A stretch of DNA of 36,101 nucleotides. Source: a virus. A program made the position numbers and the translations under genes. Under the pieces are notes generated by a model. The model had not been told where the DNA came from and did not search any database. It worked only from the letters and a program-made list of their open reading frames with translations. The stretch lies in the IMG/VR virus record IMGVR_UViG_3300029487_000028, positions 1 through 36,101 of that record. One strand, 5' to 3'. The first letter of the stretch is position 1; every line of letters starts with the position of its first letter. Shown piece after piece: positions 1 through 36,101 of the stretch.

Positions 1-77
1 TGATCACGCCGTTGTGCGTGTAGTAGGCGTTCTGGATGAGCGCCATGTCGGAGGCCCACACGATTGGATTGTCCGCC
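1..77. repeat. Terminal direct repeat, copy 1 (assembly overlap of a circular molecule)
   Basis: tgatcacgccgttgtgcgtg...gattggattgtccgcc is identical to 36025-36101. Confidence 0.95.
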
Positions 78-25987: not shown

Positions 25988-26134
25988 TTACGCCTCCTTC
26001 CGATCCTCCTGCTTGCCTTCCTTCGCCAGCGCCATGCCATAGGCGATATCGCTCAGACGCTGCATCTGCGCGGGCGTCAGCTTCTCGGTGCTTTTGTTCA
26101 GGTTTTCGATTGCCTGCTTTTCCTTCTCGGACAT
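25988..26134 (-). CDS. First early gene (Cro position), small helical protein
   Basis: Start at MSEKEKQAI after GAGGTGAGAAAA. 48 aa, divergent from the repressor gene. Confidence 0.5.
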   Translation of the reverse strand: MSEKEKQAIENLNKSTEKLTPAQMQRLSDIAYGMALAKEGKQEDRKEA

Positions 26135-26177
26135 TTTTCTCACCTCGCGTTGTTGCGACATTTTGCTGTCACGTTTT

Positions 26178-26197
26178 GTATTGTGACTACACAATAC
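26178..26197. promoter_or_regulatory. Operator-like palindrome O1 (GTATTGTG-acta-CACAATAC)
   Basis: Perfect 8-bp arms. It overlaps the -10 and transcription start of the leftward promoter. Confidence 0.55.
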
Positions 26198-26219
26198 CAC
26201 CTTTTAAATGTTTTGTCAA
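26191..26219 (-). promoter_or_regulatory. Leftward early promoter (TTGACA-17-TATTGT with an extended TG)
   Basis: On the minus strand the -35 is at 26219-26214 and the -10 at 26196-26191. Confidence 0.55.
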
Positions 26220-26263: not shown

Positions 26264-26281
26264 ATCGCAGCCGTGTATAAT
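26254..26281 (+). promoter_or_regulatory. Rightward repressor promoter (TTGACA-16-TATAAT with an extended TG)
   Basis: -35 at 26254-26259, TG at 26274-26275, -10 at 26276-26281. Confidence 0.6.
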
Positions 26282-26302
26282 ATAGTCAAGGGAGGTGATA
26301 CG

Positions 26303-26674
26303 GTGACGATCAATGATCGGATCAAGGATATCCGCCGGAGCACAGGCTTGTCGCAGACCGATTTTGCAGAACGGCTCGGCACGACGCGCGGGGTGATTAC
26401 AAATCTTGAAGGGGAGAAAACCACACCGAACGAGCCGTTTATCAAACTGATCTGCCGGGAATTCAACATCGACGAGCATTGGCTCCGCACCGGCGAGGGC
26501 GAAATGCGGCAGAAGCTGACGCGTAATCAAGAAATCGCCGAGTTCATGGGCGTCGTCATGCACGATCCCGACGACGCGCCGCGCAAGCGGTTTGTATCGA
26601 TCATCAGCAAACTCAGCGCCGACGAATGGCAGCTGCTCGCCGAGATCGCAAAAAAAATGGCCGAGGACGAATAA
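26303..26674 (+). CDS. cI-like XRE-family HTH repressor
   Basis: GTG at 26303 lies 7 nt after GGAGG. The HTH is STGLSQTDFAERLGTTRGVITNLEGEKTTP. 123 aa. Confidence 0.8.
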   Translation: MTINDRIKDIRRSTGLSQTDFAERLGTTRGVITNLEGEKTTPNEPFIKLICREFNIDEHWLRTGEGEMRQKLTRNQEIAEFMGVVMHDPDDAPRKRFVSIISKLSADEWQLLAEIAKKMAEDE

Positions 26675-28191: not shown

Positions 28192-28602
28192 TTGAAGGAA
28201 AAATTATCTGATTTGTGCCGTGAGCAGAAGCAGACGATCACTCCGCGCAAAACAAATCAGGATGTAGCCGAAAATACCGATCTTTCCGTCGGTACCGTCT
28301 CCCAGTTCTTTCGCGGCGACATCAAAAATCCGTCTGTTTACACGGTCGGTCCGATCTGCCGGGAGATGGGCGTTTCTATGGATGAGTATTTCGGCATTCC
28401 GCATGACGAGCCTGCCGAGTCTTCCGATGCCGAAAAACTCCGCGCCGAGAACGCGGCCCTTCGCGCGCAGCTTGCCCAGCAGCAGAAATCCCTGCGTATG
28501 CACCGGCTTGTGACGCTCATCCTCTTGGGCATTCTTTCGCTGTGTGCCCTTGCGCTTGTGGCCGACGTGCTCATCCCATCAATCGGCTGGATTCGCACAT
28601 GA
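28192..28602 (+). CDS. Membrane-anchored XRE-type HTH protein
   Basis: TTG start. The HTH is NQDVAENTDLSVGTVSQFFRGDIKNPSVYTV, followed by a coiled coil and a C-terminal TM (LVTLILLGILSLCALALVADVLI). ATGA overlap with int. Confidence 0.6.
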   Translation: MKEKLSDLCREQKQTITPRKTNQDVAENTDLSVGTVSQFFRGDIKNPSVYTVGPICREMGVSMDEYFGIPHDEPAESSDAEKLRAENAALRAQLAQQQKSLRMHRLVTLILLGILSLCALALVADVLIPSIGWIRT

Positions 28603-30227
28603 AAATTACCGCCCCGGCCCGATCAGCCAGAGCGGTATCTTTGGAGGCTTTTGTGGATAATTTGAATCTTGCCAACGTCGTGATCTACGCCCGGTATTCT
28701 TCCGCCGGGCAAAACGACCAATCGATAGACGGCCAGCTTGCCAAATGCCGCGAATACGCGCAGCAGCGCGGATACCGCGTCGTTGGCGAATACTGCGACC
28801 GGGCGCTATCCGGGCGATACGCCGAAACGCGTCCGGAATTCCAGCGCTTGATTGCCGACAGCGCAAAGCGCGCGTTTGATTTTGTGCTTGTCTGGAAGCT
28901 CGACCGCTTTTCCCGCGACCGGTACGACAGCGCGATCTACAAAAAGAAACTGCGCACGAACGGCGTGCGCGTTCTGTCCGTCACCGAGGGCGTCGGCGAC
29001 AGCAGCGAGAGCGTGCTGCTGGAGGCGATCCTGGAGGCCATGGCGGAGGAATATTCCCGCCAGCTTGCCCAGAACGTCCGTCGTGGGATGCGGCAGAACG
29101 CCGAGAAGGGCCTGAGCCTCGGCGGCCTCGCCCCGCTCGGCTACCGCGTTGTAAATAAGCAGTACGAGATCAACGAGGATGAAGCCCGCATCGTCCGCTT
29201 TATCCATGAGCAGTATGCCGACGGCGCAGGGCAAAAGCAGATCGTGGCCGACTGCGCGCGGCTGGGCTACCGTAATCAGCGCGGGAACCCGCTCACATTA
29301 GCCTCGGTAAAGCGTATCCTTGCAAACGAGCGGTATGTCGGCAGGTACGACTACCTCGGCGAGATCGTGATTGAAGACGCATTCCCGGCCATCGTCTCAA
29401 AGGATCTGAAAAAGCGTGTGCGCGACCGGCTCAAGGCGAATGCCAAGGCCCCCGGCCACGCAAAGGCAAAAGTCGAGTATCTGCTGCATGGAAAGCTGTT
29501 CTGCGGCGAGTGCGGCGCGCCGATGATAGGGGAGTGTGGGCGCGGCAGGCACGGCGCGACGTATTATTATTACACCTGCGCCGCGCGGAAGAAGCAGCAC
29601 ACCTGCAAAAAGCGCAATGAGCGCAAGGACGAACTCGAAGCCAGCATCGTGGATTATATCGGCTCGTGCGTCCTGACGGACAGCTGGATCGACGGCGCAG
29701 CCGAGCGCGTTGTGGCGGAGTATCAAAAAAGCTACGACGCATCCGGCATTAAGCCGCTCGAAAAGCAGATTCGCGACGCCGACAAGGAGATCGATCAGCT
29801 TGTCGACGCTCTGATCTCCGCAACGGCGGAAGCTGCCCGCCGCAGGATCAACGAGCGCATCGAAACTGCCGAGGCCCGAAAGCAGGCGCTGGAGGCTGAT
29901 CTTGCATCTCTCCGCATCGCCAGCCGCGTCCAGATCAAAAAAGAGGACATCGTCGTATGGCTCAACCAGTTCCGCACCGGCGACCGGTCCGATCTGGAAT
30001 ACCACAAAAAAGTCATAGATTTATTCGTAAACGCGATCTATCTGTACGATGATTCGTTCAAATTATTTCTGAATGTAGCCGATTCCGCCCAAGTAACCTA
30101 CGCCGACGCCCTCGCCCTCGCGCCGCCGTCCGTTTCGGATTTCGGCGCGTCCGGTGTACCAGATATGCACTTATCCGAACACATCATATTTATAAATGGT
30201 GTTATTGGGATGATCGTGCAAAGATAA
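28599..30227 (+). CDS. int: Large serine recombinase (integrase)
   Basis: VVIYARYSSAGQ catalytic Ser motif, DRFSRD, recombinase domain, zinc ribbon CGECGAPM...YYYYTC, and a C-terminal coiled coil. 542 aa. Confidence 0.9.
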   Translation: MKITAPARSARAVSLEAFVDNLNLANVVIYARYSSAGQNDQSIDGQLAKCREYAQQRGYRVVGEYCDRALSGRYAETRPEFQRLIADSAKRAFDFVLVWKLDRFSRDRYDSAIYKKKLRTNGVRVLSVTEGVGDSSESVLLEAILEAMAEEYSRQLAQNVRRGMRQNAEKGLSLGGLAPLGYRVVNKQYEINEDEARIVRFIHEQYADGAGQKQIVADCARLGYRNQRGNPLTLASVKRILANERYVGRYDYLGEIVIEDAFPAIVSKDLKKRVRDRLKANAKAPGHAKAKVEYLLHGKLFCGECGAPMIGECGRGRHGATYYYYTCAARKKQHTCKKRNERKDELEASIVDYIGSCVLTDSWIDGAAERVVAEYQKSYDASGIKPLEKQIRDADKEIDQLVDALISATAEAARRRINERIETAEARKQALEADLASLRIASRVQIKKEDIVVWLNQFRTGDRSDLEYHKKVIDLFVNAIYLYDDSFKLFLNVADSAQVTYADALALAPPSVSDFGASGVPDMHLSEHIIFINGVIGMIVQR

Positions 30228-30262
30228 AAAATCCCTCTCCGGTTTGGAGAGGGATTTTTTTA
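30226..30262. terminator. Bidirectional terminator / perfect inverted repeat
   Basis: aaaaaATCCCTCTCC-ggttt-GGAGAGGGATttttttt, between the convergent int and ORF 30260. Confidence 0.7.
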
Positions 30263-31119: not shown

Positions 31120-31761
31120 TTAGTTGTTGCAGCAGCCGCAGCACTTCGGGAGCGGATCGTAGAGCGTCTGGGGCGACGTTGCGGTTCCGGTGGTGACGTC
31201 GGCGACCTGCTTGGGGTAAAACGTCGCGTTGACGTAGGTTTTCAGGGCGTTGTCGCCGCAGCAGCGGCGTTCGGCCTCCATCTTTACCGCGCTGAGCGCC
31301 TCCTTGCGGACGCAATCAACGTCCTGCTTTACGAGCGTAAAGCTGTCCTCGGTGCGCTGGTTGTGGACGGCCTGCTTGCACAGCGCCTCACGGACGTCCT
31401 TGAGCTGCCCGTCGATATAACCGTACATCTCCAGCATTTTCTGATCGTTGTAGGTGTTGGCCTTCAGGAGCGCGATCTCGCTGTCCTTCGCGGCCAGCTG
31501 CTGCTCCCGTTCGAGATCATAGCGCGTGACCGGCATATTCTCGCTGCACGTCGGCTCCTGCTGGCGCGAAGCCAGCGCAGCGGCCAGCGCTGCCATGGCG
31601 GGCGTCGCCGCAGCCGCCGTCACTTCTGCGGCAGCCGCCCGGTTGTTCTGTCCGAGGCCGCCCAGCAGATTACCGAGTCCGCCGTTCGCCAGTCCCAGTG
31701 CGGCACCGCCGATGCCAAAGCCCAGCGCAGTCCCCGCGAGTCCCTTGCTTGCGTATTCCAT
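31120..31761 (-). CDS. Glycine-zipper / coiled-coil / C-terminal Cys-cluster protein (accessory operon gene 1)
   Basis: ATG at 31761 lies 9 nt after GGAGG. The N terminus is GLAGTALGFGIGGAALGLANGGLGNLLGGLG, followed by an Ala-rich segment, a coiled coil, and a C terminus ending PKCCGCCNN. 213 aa. Confidence 0.6.
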   Translation of the reverse strand: MEYASKGLAGTALGFGIGGAALGLANGGLGNLLGGLGQNNRAAAAEVTAAAATPAMAALAAALASRQQEPTCSENMPVTRYDLEREQQLAAKDSEIALLKANTYNDQKMLEMYGYIDGQLKDVREALCKQAVHNQRTEDSFTLVKQDVDCVRKEALSAVKMEAERRCCGDNALKTYVNATFYPKQVADVTTGTATSPQTLYDPLPKCCGCCNN

Positions 31762-31884
31762 AAAAAAATACCTCCGGTAAAAATAAGTAAGCTGGCCAGC
31801 TCCTATCCTCAGTCTACCGGCTCCGTGCTTTTTCTGGGGGACATTTATGGGGCATTTGTGTACCAAATTTTTTATATTTTTTTG

Positions 31885-31955
31885 CATTTTCCTCTTGACT
31901 TTTACGCCCAATGGGCGTATAATAAGGCCATAAGATAAAGCAAGGCGAAAGCCGG
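31885..31955 (+). repeat. Promoter/5'UTR cassette, copy 1
   Basis: Aligns with 33230-33301 with one substitution and one single-nt indel. Confidence 0.9.
31895..31923 (+). promoter_or_regulatory. Consensus promoter TTGACT-17-TATAAT with the palindrome ACGCCCAaTGGGCGT (31904-31918) in its spacer
   Basis: -35 at 31895-31900, -10 at 31918-31923, T-rich UP-like tract upstream. Confidence 0.7.
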
Positions 31956-31968
31956 AAAGAGGTACATC

Positions 31969-32232
31969 ATGGAAACCAAGATCATCAACAACCGTTACGA
32001 ACTTATTGCTTGCACTGCCATTGCCACCGAGGCTGGCGACACGGAAGTACAGGACGCGATCCTCTGCCGCGATATGGACGCCTGCCTGGGCGACGCATTT
32101 TGCGTGTACTTTGGCTACACGCTGGACGAGCTGGCGGACAGCATCGAAGACGCTGACTATCCCGATTTCAGCGACGATACGCTCGCCACCGTCCGCATCG
32201 ACGGCCAGCCCATCAGCGCGTACTGCTTCTGA
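31969..32232 (+). CDS. Highly acidic 87-aa protein (anti-defence / DNA-mimic candidate)
   Basis: AAGAGG SD. 19 Asp+Glu versus 4 Lys+Arg, counted by hand. Confidence 0.65.
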   Translation: METKIINNRYELIACTAIATEAGDTEVQDAILCRDMDACLGDAFCVYFGYTLDELADSIEDADYPDFSDDTLATVRIDGQPISAYCF

Positions 32233-32233
32233 T

Positions 32234-32839
32234 ATGAAGGGAGAAATCGGAACCACCGCCATTTGCGAGATGTGCGGCAATGAGTACACCGTGACAGGTA
32301 CACGCCAGAAATATTGTTTGGCCTGTTCGTCAATTCGCAGACGCGAGGCCGCCACCGCCAGTTTTCATCGAAAGGCCGCTGGAACTTCTAGAAAAATCGG
32401 GTCTGCGGCTATTTGTGAGCGCTGCGGATCTGAATACACAACAACCGGAGGAAATCAGAAATTTTGCCCATCCTGCGCACGCAGCCAATGGGGCCGTGGA
32501 GAGCTTCGCCACATTGGAAGCGCTGCAACCTGTAAGCGCTGCGGTGAATCGTTCATTCTGACTGCTACGGGGCAGAGATACTGCCCTGCTTGCGCCGCTC
32601 TAAAGAGATCGCCGCGTGTTGATGATTCTTTGCTCGATTTAGATGCATTTTGCACATTGCTGAAAAAGCACAGCATCACACAAGCTGATTTCGCGCGCCG
32701 TTTTTGTATCAGCTCAGCTCTCATTAGCAGATGGTGCTCAGGGGAGCGCAGATGCCCGACGTACGTGCTTTCTATGGCAGATGAACTTCTCTCCATTGAC
32801 GCCGAAAAAAGAAAGAATCAAAAGGAGGAACCCACATGA
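32234..32839 (+). CDS. Triple zinc-ribbon plus C-terminal HTH protein
   Basis: ATG lies 1 nt after the upstream TGA. It has three repeats of IG(T/S)(T/A)AxCxxCGxx(Y/F)...Q(K/R)(Y/F)CxxC, then the HTH ITQADFARRFCISSALISRWCSGERRCPTYV. 201 aa. Confidence 0.6.
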   Translation: MKGEIGTTAICEMCGNEYTVTGTRQKYCLACSSIRRREAATASFHRKAAGTSRKIGSAAICERCGSEYTTTGGNQKFCPSCARSQWGRGELRHIGSAATCKRCGESFILTATGQRYCPACAALKRSPRVDDSLLDLDAFCTLLKKHSITQADFARRFCISSALISRWCSGERRCPTYVLSMADELLSIDAEKRKNQKEEPT

Positions 32840-33177
32840 AACTCACACCCGCAATCCGCGCTGCTCTCTACGCCGAAACCGGCGCATACACCGACCGCGA
32901 TGCCTACATCTCCGATATGGCACTGTCCAGCGTCTGGGGCGATGCCGAAGACGAAGAGATTCCGGCTGAGCGGCTTGCGCTGCTCGGCGGGATCTGGGAC
33001 GGCACGCACTGCATGATCCCGGAGCTAATCGAGAAATACGGACTGACGCAGACCGGCTTTGCGCAGTATTTCAACGTTCCTCTGCGTACCGTGCAGCACT
33101 GGTGCCTCGGCGACCGCGCCTGCCCGCCGTATGTGGCCACAATGGCAGCCGAGATTTTAGCCTTGAGCAATCGATAA
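32836..33177 (+). CDS. HTH protein paralogous to the C terminus of ORF 32234 (Aca-like candidate)
   Basis: AAGGAGG SD, ATGA overlap. The HTH is LTQTGFAQYFNVPLRTVQHWCLGDRACPPYV. 113 aa. Confidence 0.65.
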   Translation: MKLTPAIRAALYAETGAYTDRDAYISDMALSSVWGDAEDEEIPAERLALLGGIWDGTHCMIPELIEKYGLTQTGFAQYFNVPLRTVQHWCLGDRACPPYVATMAAEILALSNR

Positions 33178-33183
33178 AAAAGC

Positions 33184-33217
33184 AAGCGCCGGATGGGCTT
33201 CCGGCGCTTATTTTTTT
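33184..33217 (+). terminator. Rho-independent terminator
   Basis: aagcgccgg-atgggctt-ccggcgctt followed by attttttta. Confidence 0.7.
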
Positions 33218-33229
33218 ATAACTTTTTTT

Positions 33230-33301
33230 CATTTTCCTCTTGACTTTTACGCCCAATGGGCGTATAATAAGACCATAAGATAAAGCAAGGCGATAAGCCG
33301 G
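33230..33301 (+). repeat. Promoter/5'UTR cassette, copy 2
   Basis: See copy 1. Confidence 0.9.
33240..33268 (+). promoter_or_regulatory. Second copy of TTGACT-17-TATAAT, with the palindrome at 33249-33263
   Basis: -35 at 33240-33245, -10 at 33263-33268. Confidence 0.7.
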
Positions 33302-33315
33302 GAGGGAACAAAAAA

Positions 33316-33534
33316 ATGAAACAGTACAAATACTTCTACAAAGTCACCGATGAGAACGGCCAGATCATTTTCAACCATCGTTCCGATTATGCATACCGTC
33401 TTCTGGCGCTTGCGAACAAGGAAAGCCGCGACAGCGACGGCAATATGCTTGCCGCATGGTACTTCGGCAAGGTTGAGCACAACATCCCCGAAGACGTGTG
33501 GGAGCGTGTGCAGGTTTACGGTGATAGAATTTGA
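33316..33534 (+). CDS. Hypothetical 72-aa protein
   Basis: GGGAGGG SD. First gene of the second cassette-driven operon. Confidence 0.6.
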   Translation: MKQYKYFYKVTDENGQIIFNHRSDYAYRLLALANKESRDSDGNMLAAWYFGKVEHNIPEDVWERVQVYGDRI

Positions 33535-33544
33535 GGTATCGAAG

Positions 33545-34084
33545 ATGACTGGCTATCAGCAAGCGATCCTCATGCTGCTCGGCGTTGATACCTGCGGCAA
33601 GTTCCTTGTCCGCTGTGTTGATCGGTGGTACATTGACGCGGTTGCCGAGCTTTTCCCAACCGCGCCATACCTCCAGCACCGCACAGACGGAAAGAAAGAC
33701 TTTTGGACTGTGAAATCCGCGAAGGTGCATCTTCTCCCGTCCCTCGCCGACGTGACGGATTGGCAGGGATTTTGCCGCGGTGTGGTGGAGCTGCAAGCTT
33801 GCCTTGATCTCTGGCCGCACAAGGTACGTGGCAAGCCCACCAGGACACCACGGCTGCGGGTTTACGGGCAGCCTGAGCTTTTAACGCAAGTATCCTCGCA
33901 TTTTCCGGCAGGGCCGAAAAAGCTGCAATTTCGGCGCACGCAGACCGGCGAAACGTGCGTCCTGTACTATCAAAGCCCGGCAGAAGTTGCTGATATTCTC
34001 GATTCTCTGCACGGCGAACCTTGCAACCGCGAACTCTGGGCCAGCTGGGACGCGCTCATGCAACAAAATAAGCCCGCAGGATAA
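33545..34084 (+). CDS. Hypothetical 179-aa protein (weak LAGLIDADG-like two-motif pattern)
   Basis: Start at MTGYQQAIL after GAGGTATCGAAG. LLGVDTCGKF and FCRGVVELQAC lie about 85 aa apart, each followed by a beta-like segment. Resemblance by eye only. Confidence 0.55.
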   Translation: MTGYQQAILMLLGVDTCGKFLVRCVDRWYIDAVAELFPTAPYLQHRTDGKKDFWTVKSAKVHLLPSLADVTDWQGFCRGVVELQACLDLWPHKVRGKPTRTPRLRVYGQPELLTQVSSHFPAGPKKLQFRRTQTGETCVLYYQSPAEVADILDSLHGEPCNRELWASWDALMQQNKPAG

Positions 34085-34134
34085 CTGCGGGCCTGATACA
34101 AAAACACCCGTGGGACGAATCCAACGGGTGTTTT
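34072..34134. terminator. Tandem hairpins, the second a bidirectional terminator
   Basis: gcccgcag-gataa-ctgcgggc (34072-34092) and aaaaACACCCGT-12 nt-ACGGGTGTttt (34104-34134), between convergent transcription units. Confidence 0.65.
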
Positions 34135-34137
34135 GCG

Positions 34138-34371
34138 TTATGCTCCTGTCAGGCGGCGGGCGGTGTTGTAGATGTGCGGCAGGCGGCGGGAGATGGTTTT
34201 GCGGTCGATGCCGATCTCACCGGCGGCGTCCATCTGCGGGAGCCTGCCCACGATATAAAGCTTCACGATCTGCTGATCGATCACGTCCAAAAGTCCCTCG
34301 TCAGTGACGCGCTCCCAGTCGCTGCGCGTGAGGTGTTCCAGCTCCTTCGGCAGAGCCAGCCGCGCAGTTAT
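34138..34371 (-). CDS. Small sigma-region-4-like HTH protein with an unclear start
   Basis: The open frame runs 34377-34138. AAGGGAG is followed 9 nt later by ATA rather than ATG, and the first canonical start is GTG at 34284. The HTH is MDAAGEIGIDRKTISRRLPHIY. Confidence 0.4.
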   Translation of the reverse strand: MTARLALPKELEHLTRSDWERVTDEGLLDVIDQQIVKLYIVGRLPQMDAAGEIGIDRKTISRRLPHIYNTARRLTGA

Positions 34372-34408: not shown

Positions 34409-35119
34409 TTACTTATCCTTGTGATTCAGCACAGCGATATTGCCCTTGTTTCTCACTTCGAGATTTAGCGCGGCGGCGATATCGCGCACCTTGACGTAGT
34501 TCGTACCGTTCTTCAGGATGCGTTCGACGGCGACTTCCTTGCCGTCCACGATGATCTTGCTCTTTTCTACCATTTCGGTTTCCTCCTCTGCATTTTTTCC
34601 ATCTTCGAGGGCCATCACGGTATGGCCCGAGCTTACCAGTACGTCGCCGCGCAGCAGATTGGCGTCCGTCATCAGATACTTGCTGCCAGTCAGCAGCTCG
34701 AAGTCTCCCGTCGCCGGCCAATCGTGCAGCATACAGTAGGTGGTGCAGCTGTTGCCCTGCCGACGGTAGAGCGCTTCGACCGACGCGCAGCCTGCGGCCA
34801 CGGCGCAGAGCATCATGAGCGCGGAGCAGTCCGTCTCCACGGGCTTTGTGATCTTGCTCACGTCCCACCCGACGGCTCTGGCGGCCTCATACGCCGTGTT
34901 CCGGTCTTCCATGTCGTAGCCGATGTTCGGGTTCTTAATGGCCGCCTCGCACGTCTGCGCGGCCCGCTCGGCCTTTTTGCGGCTCTTGTAGCGCAAGATG
35001 CCGAGCCAGCGGCCATTGTACCAGTTGGAGATATTCAGCTCCCGCCCGGTCTGATTGCCGGGCTGCTGATTGCGGCCGCCCGTCTCGCCGAGACTGGCCT
35101 GCCCGATCTTGATGCTCAT
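34409..35119 (-). CDS. Endolysin: Cys-peptidase-like N-terminal domain plus a copper-amine-oxidase-like wall-binding C-terminal domain
   Basis: ETDCSALMM and SSGHTVMA are candidate Cys/His catalytic motifs. The C-terminal IVDGKEVAVERILKNGTNYVKVRDIAAALNLEV resembles the Cu_amine_oxidN1 domain. ATGA overlap with the holin. Confidence 0.7.
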   Translation of the reverse strand: MSIKIGQASLGETGGRNQQPGNQTGRELNISNWYNGRWLGILRYKSRKKAERAAQTCEAAIKNPNIGYDMEDRNTAYEAARAVGWDVSKITKPVETDCSALMMLCAVAAGCASVEALYRRQGNSCTTYCMLHDWPATGDFELLTGSKYLMTDANLLRGDVLVSSGHTVMALEDGKNAEEETEMVEKSKIIVDGKEVAVERILKNGTNYVKVRDIAAALNLEVRNKGNIAVLNHKDK

Positions 35120-35334
35120 TTCTGCGCATCCTCCTTCGTGGCGTTGTCAATCGCGTCCTGCGCTTTCTGGCTCTGTGTGCCAAAGTAAAACGCGATCACG
35201 ACGGTATACACCATCATAAAGTCCTGCGAGATTTTCCCGGCGACTGCCATGTACGCAAATACCGCCGTCAGCACCAGCGTGACGATGGACTTGACACTCA
35301 GCAGATTGCCGAGCCGCTTTTTGATGTTTTCCAT
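35116..35334 (-). CDS. Holin (2 TM)
   Basis: 72 aa with two TM segments and a charged C terminus, directly upstream of the endolysin. Confidence 0.75.
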   Translation of the reverse strand: MENIKKRLGNLLSVKSIVTLVLTAVFAYMAVAGKISQDFMMVYTVVIAFYFGTQSQKAQDAIDNATKEDAQK

Positions 35335-35959: not shown

Positions 35960-36101
35960 TCAGATCGGCACGAAGGCCGCATCCGTCCACTTTGCCGTCG
36001 CGCCTGCTTCGCCCATCCAGACCTTGATCACGCCGTTGTGCGTGTAGTAGGCGTTCTGGATGAGCGCCATGTCGGAGGCCCACACGATTGGATTGTCCGC
36101 C
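35960..36101 (-). CDS. 3' part of the junction-spanning 108-aa ORF (same gene as 1-262)
   Basis: ...YYTHNGVIKVWMGEAGATAKWTDAAFVPI, stop TGA at 35962-35960. Confidence 0.6.
   Translation of the reverse strand, partial: ADNPIVWASDMALIQNAYYTHNGVIKVWMGEAGATAKWTDAAFVPI
36025..36101. repeat. Terminal direct repeat, copy 2
   Basis: Identical to nt 1-77. Confidence 0.95.

Follow-up and report, generated by a model that had tools for sequence, protein, structure and literature searches.

Twin promoter cassettes with an Aca10-type operator at a probable anti-defence locus of a temperate phage

The viral DNA analysed here, IMG/VR record IMGVR_UViG_3300029487_000028 (positions 1 to 36,101; this whole stretch of 36,101 nucleotides is called the window), carries an island of five small plus-strand genes in two operons, each operon being preceded by a copy of the same promoter cassette. 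We propose that the island is probably an anti-defence locus in which one repressor of the anti-CRISPR-associated (Aca) kind governs both operons. An initial annotation, made from the letters of the window, had described the twin cassettes with one substitution and one indel between them, their near-consensus promoters with a palindrome in a 17-nucleotide (nt) spacer, the contents of the two operons including a very acidic 87-residue protein, and a terminator behind each operon. All of this was confirmed, the cassettes to the base by alignment, and the coordinates of the open reading frames were as described, except that the last one starts at 33545 and not at 33546.

The two cassette copies (31868-31955 and 33213-33301) are 93% identical across 81 ungapped nt, and between 31885-31955 and 33230-33301 they differ by a single substitution (G at 31927, A at 33272) and an indel of 1 nt. 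Their 29-nt core, TTGACTTTTACGCCCAATGGGCGTATAAT, is the same in both copies, has no further occurrence in the window and was matched in 0 of 100 shuffles. In both copies this core is a TTGACT-17-TATAAT promoter, scoring 11/12 against the sigma-70 consensus, with an embedded 15-bp palindrome, ACGCCCAATGGGCGT. The palindrome begins 3 nt past the -35 hexamer and its end overlaps the first T of the -10 hexamer; it becomes a 17-bp palindrome if the flanking T/A is counted. When the whole genome was scanned, the palindrome TACGCCCAATGGGCGTA was found at the two cassettes only. The island is composed as follows (aa, amino acids; 5'UTR, 5' untranslated region).

31868..31968, plus strand: cassette copy 1, defined by sequence comparison, with a chassis kept in 51 distinct contexts
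31868-31894, plus strand: T-rich upstream tract of copy 1
31895-31900, plus strand: -35 hexamer TTGACT of copy 1
31904-31918 (17 bp with flanks, 31903-31919), plus strand: operator palindrome of copy 1
31918-31923, plus strand: -10 hexamer TATAAT of copy 1
From there to 31968, plus strand: conserved 5'UTR of copy 1, with CCATAAGATAAAG, a GGC-GAAA-GCC hairpin and the Shine-Dalgarno sequence AAGAGG
31969..32232, plus strand: A87, 87 aa, very acidic orphan (19 D/E, 4 K/R), first cargo gene and candidate anti-defence protein
32234..32839, plus strand: B201, 201 aa, starting one base past the A87 stop (TGAtATG)
32836..33177, plus strand: C113, 113 aa, predicted operator-binding Aca-like repressor, its start overlapping the B201 stop (ATGA)
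33184..33217 (hairpin 33184-33209), plus strand: intrinsic terminator of operon 1, a 10-bp stem followed by ATTTTTTTAT, bidirectional in form
33213..33315, plus strand: cassette copy 2
33240-33245, 33249-33263 and 33263-33268, plus strand: -35, operator palindrome and -10 of copy 2
Behind these, plus strand: 5'UTR of copy 2, with CCATAAGATAAAG, a GGC-GATAA-GCC hairpin and the Shine-Dalgarno sequence GGGAGGG
33316..33534, plus strand: D72, 72 aa, orphan, first gene of operon 2
33545..34084, plus strand: E179, 179 aa, compact single-chain double-LAGLIDADG fold
34101..34139 (hairpin 34101-34134), plus strand: intrinsic terminator of operon 2, AAAACACCCGT..ACGGGTGTTTT then G (TTTTG)

The location of the palindrome recalls a characterised operator. 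The Aca10 dimer of Pseudomonas citronellolis binds a palindrome between the -35 and the -10 of the acrIC7-acrIC6-aca10 promoter, as shown by electrophoretic mobility shift assay, and the minimal site is the 19-bp ATACGCTCATTGAGCGTAT (PMC9410881). We observed that the window site TTACGCCCAATGGGCGTAT, also placed between -35 and -10, has as its sole half-site change a T to C, mirrored by A to G in the other arm, and further differs from the Aca10 site at the outermost base and at the central base. Viral contigs were then scanned for the palindrome plus a -10, which gave six loci. One of them, L002, carries ATACGCCCATTGGGCGTAT before a small gene, which is followed by the gene for a 60-aa protein that is a clear Aca10 homologue (7XI5, 3.4e-17, full length). 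Among the relatives of the window phage, L039, L047 and L088 carry TTACGCTCATTGAGCGTAT, in which 18 of the 19 positions are as in the published Aca10 site, and some relatives have the Aca10 core unchanged. The initial annotation had read the island as having the layout of an anti-CRISPR (acr)-aca locus; this reading is supported, and the match to ATACGCTCATTGAGCGTAT refines it to an Aca10-type operator.

C113 consists of a conserved, helical N-terminal domain (aa 1-60) and an Aca10-like helix-turn-helix (HTH) of the XRE type (aa 64-100). Mutagenesis of Aca10 identified Q22, R34, Q37 and R44 as DNA-contact residues (PMC9410881), and all four are kept in C113 as Q72, R84, Q87 and R94. R84 and T85 do not vary, nor do Q72, Q87 and R94 among close relatives. 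The best match of the C113 HTH among PDB sequences is Aca10 itself (7XI5, aa 67-99), a weak one, and comparison of C113 with the Aca10 homologue of L002 by hhalign gives 87%. Taken alone, the sequence places C113 in the XRE 'W-x-x-G-x-R' subgroup to which Aca10, HigA2 and MqsA also belong, and not firmly in the Aca10 family. Both HTH proteins of operon 1 had been put forward as possible binders of the palindrome. The residues kept from Aca10 point to C113 rather than B201 (the open reading frame at 32234) as the predicted operator reader; B201 is unlikely to share the site, since its equivalent helix reads A..S-R and lacks the conserved R-T..Q residues.

The N-terminal domain of C113 occurs in 76 representative clusters, always beside an HTH, and in addition in fusions with zinc-ribbon or AP2-type N-terminal extensions, and it is therefore treated here as part of the regulator. 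The idea that this domain is an independent inhibitor, in the manner of AcrIIA1, was dropped, as an exhaustive search found it with an HTH only. In P0212 (297 aa) the C113 module, that is the N-terminal domain plus the HTH, is fused to a multi-zinc-ribbon protein, and in P0233 and P0239 to proteins with GRLTV..CxCxCG repeats and an AP2-like domain. A protein of this last type is also encoded just downstream of the C113-like gene in L098 (2411-3109).

Relatives with C113 homologues were collected as 80 viral loci taken of the 250 found, plus three loci from metagenome-assembled genomes (MAGs). Across them the promoter chassis, namely the T-rich tract, the -35, the 17-nt spacing, the -10 and the 5'UTR, is kept and the operator core varies. 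In 86 related loci this core falls into three classes, each paired with one variant of the C113 recognition region.

RTVQHWCLGDR: operator half-site (A/G)CGCCCA, in 31 of 36 loci, the other 5 being without a detected cassette
RTVQGWC(L/I)GER: operator half-site ACGCTCA, in 11 of 11 loci
RTVQDWC(G/A)GRR: operator half-site ACACGCA, in 37 of 39 loci

No crossed pair of C113 variant and operator was observed among the surveyed loci. The phages divided among these classes have cassettes and C113 proteins of 78-97% identity, and the class-fixed differences of C113 lie in the recognition helix and the R94 loop, at 88, 91, 93 and 95 (with 80/81), and further at 52, 110 and 112. A change in one arm of the palindrome always comes with the matching change in the other, which is expected if a symmetric dimer reads the site. 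Loci L003 and L004, which differ in the N-terminal domain (38% identity) and come from a host of lower GC, and the Aca10-like L002 all pair Q-H-W with CGCCCA; the P. citronellolis Aca10 itself pairs Q-Q-W with CGCTCA. Five further classes, from relatives of 45-50% identity, have E at position 87 and CCAC..GTGG or CCGC..GCGG palindromes, always of 7+1+7 geometry and ending at the -10. Such a residue-to-base specificity pattern, in at least three close and five distant classes, is new, and it yields a simple testable rule that relates HTH residue 88 and the loop 91-95 to the central half-site bases.

A link to a known inhibitor came from distant relatives. P0093 and P0084 (48-50% identity to C113) were traced to contigs on which they lie between serine integrase and holin/endolysin genes, behind the same type of promoter, TTGACA-palindrome-TATAAT. 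The operons of these contigs encode first a 98-aa protein, then an acidic one of 66 aa, one of about 200 aa (acidic in L091), a multi-zinc-ribbon protein and finally the C113-like protein. The 66-aa protein is Pfam AcrIC5 (PF22147; 1.9e-22, 79.6 bits against a cutoff of 27, over the full model length), and AcrIC5 was found in operons closed by C113 relatives in L091/L092, L096 and L097. AcrIC5 is a validated type I-C inhibitor with Firmicutes orthologues (PMC7913775). By the guilt-by-association criterion of the field, the C113 family thus qualifies as Aca-like: an HTH gene downstream of a known acr gene in the same operon is found in these distant relatives and not in the window, which itself combines a strong promoter, an inverted repeat in the promoter core, small variable genes before the regulator and a mobile element.

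We also looked at the leaders of the cassette transcripts (31924-31968 and 33269-33315), in which the first transcribed bases are far better conserved than the remainder. The leader-start motif is CCATAAGATAAAG in the window, ACATAAGATAAA in L003/L004 and CA(C/G)TTAAG(A/G)GAG in distant relatives (L090-L099), and CCAUAAGAUAAAG plus a hairpin is the form that the leader takes in cassette transcripts. In many loci a tiny hairpin stands directly 5' of the Shine-Dalgarno sequence, as GGC-GA(A/T)AA-GCC, GGGG-ATCA-CCCC or GGG-AGATA-CCC. An Rfam scan of 31700-34300 gave sub-threshold noise only, and the leader motif has no Rfam match; for aca10 operons a 5'UTR RNA motif has been predicted (PMC13551039). 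Inside the operon of the distant relative L098 (1766-1831) there is a second, degenerate -10 plus leader (GGGGTATAATGCAGCCAGTTAAGG) with a half-decayed palindrome, which suggests that internal re-initiation sites arise repeatedly in such operons.

A search for the cassette in relatives, proposed in the initial annotation, found it conserved in more than 80 related phage contigs, with varying cargo behind it. Cargo was counted by tblastn over the 80 viral loci, of which 58 have A87, 34 have E179, 16 each have B201 and D72, and 3 have the full five-gene set of the window. In every locus C113 is the last gene of operon 1. E179 stands ahead of C113 in 15 loci; in 19 it lies downstream, following a second cassette. 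Twin cassettes flank C113 in at least 10 loci, so the duplication is recurrent and not a one-off event. The shared cassette of about 90 nt would be an obvious substrate for recombination that shuffles modules.

None of the five proteins had been recognised initially. This stands for A87 and D72, which remain orphans, but not for the other three, of which two contain an XRE-type HTH and one a LAGLIDADG fold. For A87 there is no Pfam, PHROG, NCBIfam, PADLOC or PDB sequence match; its homologues, 35 protein clusters, come from metagenomes only, and its AlphaFold2 model, built from a 21-sequence alignment, has a pLDDT of 44, too poor for a fold search. Nothing informative was found for D72 in Pfam, PHROGs, NCBIfam, PADLOC or PDB sequences. 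Other cargo in relatives includes acidic orphans of 128, 119, 79 and 67 aa, a protein of 91 aa and a multi-zinc-ribbon protein of 213 aa, and ten further cargo families of the relatives have no informative Pfam or PHROGs match.

Cargo of this kind could also consist of morons, expressed from the prophage to the benefit of the lysogen, through superinfection exclusion or anti-phage defence, with C113 setting the steady-state level. The island is indeed made of promoter-gene-terminator units near the prophage end, between lysis genes and integrase, an autorepressed promoter would give constant low expression in the lysogen, and Aca-regulated operons can hold restriction-modification systems and helicases. 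We nevertheless consider this explanation unlikely: PADLOC returned zero matches for the five island proteins and three neighbouring genes, the cargo is mostly small, very acidic orphans, AcrIC5 is present in sister operons, and this type of operator and regulator is known from acr operons only.

B201 contains three CxxC..CxxC zinc-ribbon repeats and a C-terminal XRE-type HTH (Pfam HTH_3, 8e-5), which is paralogous to the HTH of C113 and has another recognition helix. The zinc-ribbon part of B201 has homologues (4e-16) in the zinc-ribbon genes located ahead of the C113-like genes of L091, L093 and L095. In distant loci, zinc-ribbon genes stand directly before C113-like genes and overlap them, and such genes were found in 39 loci. 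This placement, together with the P0212 fusion, makes the zinc-ribbon protein look like a conserved partner of the regulator and not like random cargo.

A zinc ribbon combined with an XRE HTH is also what MqsA has (matches of B201 at 2.1e-5 in Pfam and 7.6e-5 to NCBIfam TIGR03830), the Aca10-type HTH resembles HigA2, and an upstream gene followed by a regulator gene and a palindromic operator would fit a type II toxin-antitoxin system of the MqsRA/HigBA kind, in which the small upstream protein is the toxin and B201 or C113 the autoregulating antitoxin. The MqsA matches of B201 lie, however, below the family cutoffs (PF15731, 25.1 against 30 bits; TIGR03830, 22.5 against 61.8), and no MqsR-type toxin is adjacent, A87 included; no upstream protein matched a toxin family in Pfam, PHROGs, NCBIfam or PADLOC. 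Moreover, the upstream genes are many, encode acidic proteins and are readily swapped, unlike a cognate toxin, and operon 2 is without an antitoxin candidate. We therefore regard a toxin-antitoxin system as very improbable.

The AlphaFold2 model of E179 (pLDDT 94.5, pTM 0.89) shows the double alpha-beta-beta-alpha-beta-beta-alpha fold of LAGLIDADG proteins. Foldseek matched it with a probability of 1.00 to I-Tsp061I (top, 2e-6), I-AniI, I-OnuI and the N-domain of WhiA, and also to phage LAGLIDADG proteins, while sequence-level searches of Pfam, PHROGs, NCBIfam, PADLOC and PDB sequences, profile search included, gave no match. In active enzymes of this fold each LAGLIDADG helix ends in an acidic catalytic residue. 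In E179, where the catalytic register was read by eye from family conservation and the secondary structure of the model, helix 1 ends ..AILMLL-G13 with no acidic residue, the catalytic position being L12/G13 and D15 not conserved, and helix 2 ends RGVVELQ84-(A/G)85, Q84 being nearly invariant. As the catalytic acids are apparently replaced, E179 is probably a non-cleaving nucleic-acid-binding scaffold, as far as the model allows such a reading.

The fold bears on whether operon 2 might be a selfish mobile module, with E179 as a free-standing homing endonuclease that carries its own gene and promoter from one related phage to another. A confident LAGLIDADG fold, a module that is mobile in that it is found on either side of C113, and about 90 nt of homology at each junction, provided by the cassette, all agree with this, and it would account for the duplicated cassette. 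Against it, both catalytic acidic positions are apparently replaced family-wide (L/G in motif 1, Q84 in motif 2), the operator before the module matches the class of the resident C113, which means that the module is wired into the regulon, and no nuclease is needed for the movement, which is explained by homologous recombination at the shared cassette. We find a homing module quite unlikely.

The cassette anatomy, the near-identity of the operator to the Aca10 site, the coupled variation of C113 and operator, the exchange of cargo among loci and the association with AcrIC5 in relatives, as observed above, are in our opinion best explained, with good though incomplete confidence, by an Aca-regulated anti-defence locus of a temperate phage, with two operons under one shared repressor. 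Aca proteins of many families repress their cognate promoters (PMC9410906), and control of neighbouring aca-less operons has been demonstrated with Aca14 and Aca11/13 and is predicted to occur in most families (PMC13551039). For the window locus itself we infer binding, repression and their timing as follows. When phage DNA enters a cell, no repressor would be present and both near-consensus sigma-A promoters would fire strongly. This burst would make A87 and B201 as well as D72 and E179, together with C113. C113, presumably as a dimer, would then occupy the 15-17-bp spacer palindrome that touches the -10 and exclude RNA polymerase, which would switch off, in cis, the operon that encodes it and, in trans, the D72-E179 operon with no regulator gene. 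This feedback would also keep both operons at a low set-point in lysogens. A87, B201, D72 and E179 are thus candidate inhibitors of host immunity, and type I-C CRISPR-Cas is the first-guess target, since Aca10 and AcrIC5 both come from loci of I-C inhibitors.

Several points weigh against this explanation. Searches of Pfam, PHROGs, NCBIfam and PDB sequences matched none of the five window proteins to a known anti-defence family, and the possibility that A87 is a diverged AcrIC5 was rejected (no PF22147 match, hhalign probability 0.1%). The association with AcrIC5 comes from one distant sub-lineage (about 48-50% identity). The sequence similarity of C113 to Aca10 is weak, with a single-sequence E-value of 0.33 and 0.021 for the C113 profile, in which 7XI5 ranks third after 2PPX and 3MLF. 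As the loci are related phages, the covariation amounts to a handful of independent switches and not to 79 events. Aca-type regulators also control genes other than anti-CRISPRs, including the restriction-modification systems and helicases mentioned above, and the homing-endonuclease fold of E179 suggests a selfish element rather than an inhibitor. Finally, the assignment of the phage, as a temperate phage of gut Oscillospiraceae-like hosts, is a weak one that rests on three MAG matches, the only ones obtained in the genome-collection search; these point to Oscillospiraceae or Eubacteriales, and one of the MAGs is likely mis-binned as Bacteroidales.

The first 77 nt of the window (1-77) are repeated exactly at 36025-36101, and this terminal direct overlap indicates that the window is circularly closed and holds the complete genome of the phage, about 36.0 kb. 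The lysis genes of the right end carry on the structural block of the left end, which is likewise on the minus strand. Structural and early genes lie on the minus strand, opposite to the island operons. The genes that define the surroundings are the following.

26273-26674, plus strand: CI-like XRE repressor, 133 aa, opposite divergent early genes
28542-30227, plus strand: large serine recombinase (integrase), left of the island
34409-35119, minus strand: endolysin ELLD (1.4e-59), directly right of the island
35116-35334, minus strand: holin, next to the endolysin and directly right of the island

Annotation of the flanks thus agrees with the initial description of an island between lysis cassette and integrase, transcribed opposite to the late genes; this is the usual accessory-gene position of a temperate phage. 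The interval between integrase and island holds three minus-strand genes, one of which encodes DUF7841. In the phage collection we found no annotated relative of the island, the sole match being an unannotated 6.7-kb fragment over the left flank; the remaining genome matches are unannotated gut phage fragments only.

With two HTH proteins, repeated operators and a position beside the lysogeny and lysis modules, the island might be taken for a lysis-lysogeny or late-gene switch and its palindrome for an ordinary immunity operator. The CI-like repressor, however, faces a small minus-strand gene (25988-26200) across the lowest-GC stretch of the genome (0.47), and this separate module with its divergent early genes at about 26.0-26.7 kb places the immunity switch elsewhere. 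In addition, the palindrome is confined genome-wide to the two cassettes, and the cargo is variable and dispensable across relatives. We give the switch hardly any credence.

Some further observations concern the neighbourhood of the island. To its right, a minus-strand HTH open reading frame of 50 aa with a TTG start (34138-34370) corresponds to the C-terminal part of a sigma-region-4-like HTH gene (77-82 aa) that is present in full between endolysin and cassette in L003, L004 and L005. The window frame runs on upstream without ATG, GTG or TTG, and this copy may be truncated or use an unusual start codon. Two orientations of the island exist among relatives, as seen by comparing 31762-31894 with L005, L041 and L047: in the L005/L041 type the island is co-directional with the lysis genes and has the terminator of the small HTH gene upstream, and in the window/L008 type it is inverted and has GGGGACATTTATGGGGCATTTGTGTACC upstream. 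A tandem TGTACCATTTA repeat marks the island junction in L047, L082 and L088. To the left, the minus-strand gene 31120-31761 encodes a 213-aa protein without a family match, whose N-terminus is rich in Gly and Ala, whose middle part is a coiled coil and whose C-terminus is rich in Cys (..KCCGCCNN); a relative from L004 has ..CGSCCGSVNV as its end. The integrase and DUF7841 genes converge, and exactly between their stop codons lies a perfect 15-bp inverted repeat (30226-30260, AAAAAATCCCTCTCC / GGAGAGGGATTTTTT), by its form a bidirectional terminator, which could also be a candidate attP.

For the Aca-regulated anti-defence locus that we favour, acr-aca loci, the Aca10-type operator and multi-operon control are known already. 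The idea of one Aca over several operons was first tested experimentally for Aca11/13 in 2025 and for Aca14 in 2026, and since trans-control of an aca-less operon has been in print from September 2026 on (PMC13551039), the principle itself is not new. New are the two-domain regulator family with its zinc-ribbon partner, the occurrence in phages of gut Clostridia and about ten orphan families of cargo, a degenerate LAGLIDADG protein among them. The operator logic of Aca10 would in this way be extended from a Pseudomonas element to abundant temperate phages of human-gut Clostridia, and the locus offers a clean natural case of one Aca-type repressor over two operons. In addition, the cassette can serve as a search handle, the genes downstream of it being candidate inhibitors of the immune systems of Oscillospiraceae-like hosts; at least ten orphan families stand behind it, among them A87, D72, E179 and the acidic proteins of 128, 119, 79 and 67 aa. 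To our knowledge, almost no anti-defence proteins are known for such hosts.

It is conceivable, if on balance doubtful, that the operator classes are 'anti-defence immunity groups' that arose by diversifying selection against cross-repression, with E179 and the zinc-ribbon partner as undescribed kinds of anti-defence protein. If this were true, a resident prophage of the same class, or an aca gene captured by the host, would shut off the anti-defence promoters of any phage of that class entering the cell.

Among known systems, the acrIC7-acrIC6-aca10 operon of P. citronellolis (7XI5; PMC9410881, PMC7913775) shares with the window the palindrome between -35 and -10 (7+1+7/9+1+9, ACGC[T/C]CA N TG[A/G]GCGT), the HTH contact residues Q, R, Q and R of C113, and the placement of the regulator last, after small cargo genes, on a mobile element. 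In contrast to Aca10, an HTH protein of about 65 aa, C113 has an extra conserved 60-aa N-terminal domain and marginal sequence similarity. The window differs further in its host, probably a Gram-positive gut anaerobe, in a second operator copy that runs a separate operon, in a cargo unrelated to AcrIC6 and AcrIC7, and in the zinc-ribbon partner gene that is often present. The multi-operon Acas (Aca14 and Aca11/13; predicted for Aca1, 2, 4 and 12; PMC13551039, PMC12282945) likewise have one aca gene and several promoters with the same operator, some of the operons being without their own regulator and many of the regulated genes functionally uncharacterised, as in the window. Here, unlike in those cases, the whole 90-nt promoter/5'UTR cassette is duplicated and not the operator alone, and the arrangement is known from sequence.

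In Listeria prophages, the acr locus with AcrIIA1 follows the endolysin in a temperate Firmicutes phage, as the window island does. According to Osuna et al. 2020, as cited in PMC13551039, AcrIIA1 is an autorepressing HTH protein with a second domain, and C113 is predicted to act in a similar manner; by that account the second domain of AcrIIA1 is itself a Cas9 inhibitor, whereas the N-terminal domain of C113 always occurs with an HTH, and the HTH families differ. The antitoxins MqsA and HigA2 belong to the same XRE 'W-x-x-G-x-R-x-P' HTH subgroup and act on palindromic promoter operators, and MqsA combines zinc ribbon and HTH as B201 does; in contrast to them, the window is without a toxin partner, its matches stay under the family cutoffs and its cargo is variable and acidic. 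Degenerate LAGLIDADG proteins, such as the N-domain of WhiA and intron maturases, resemble E179 in the double alpha-beta-beta-alpha-beta-beta-alpha fold with catalytic acids apparently gone, but E179, at 179 aa, is far smaller, comes with neither an additional HTH nor a maturase context and belongs to an Aca-type phage operon.

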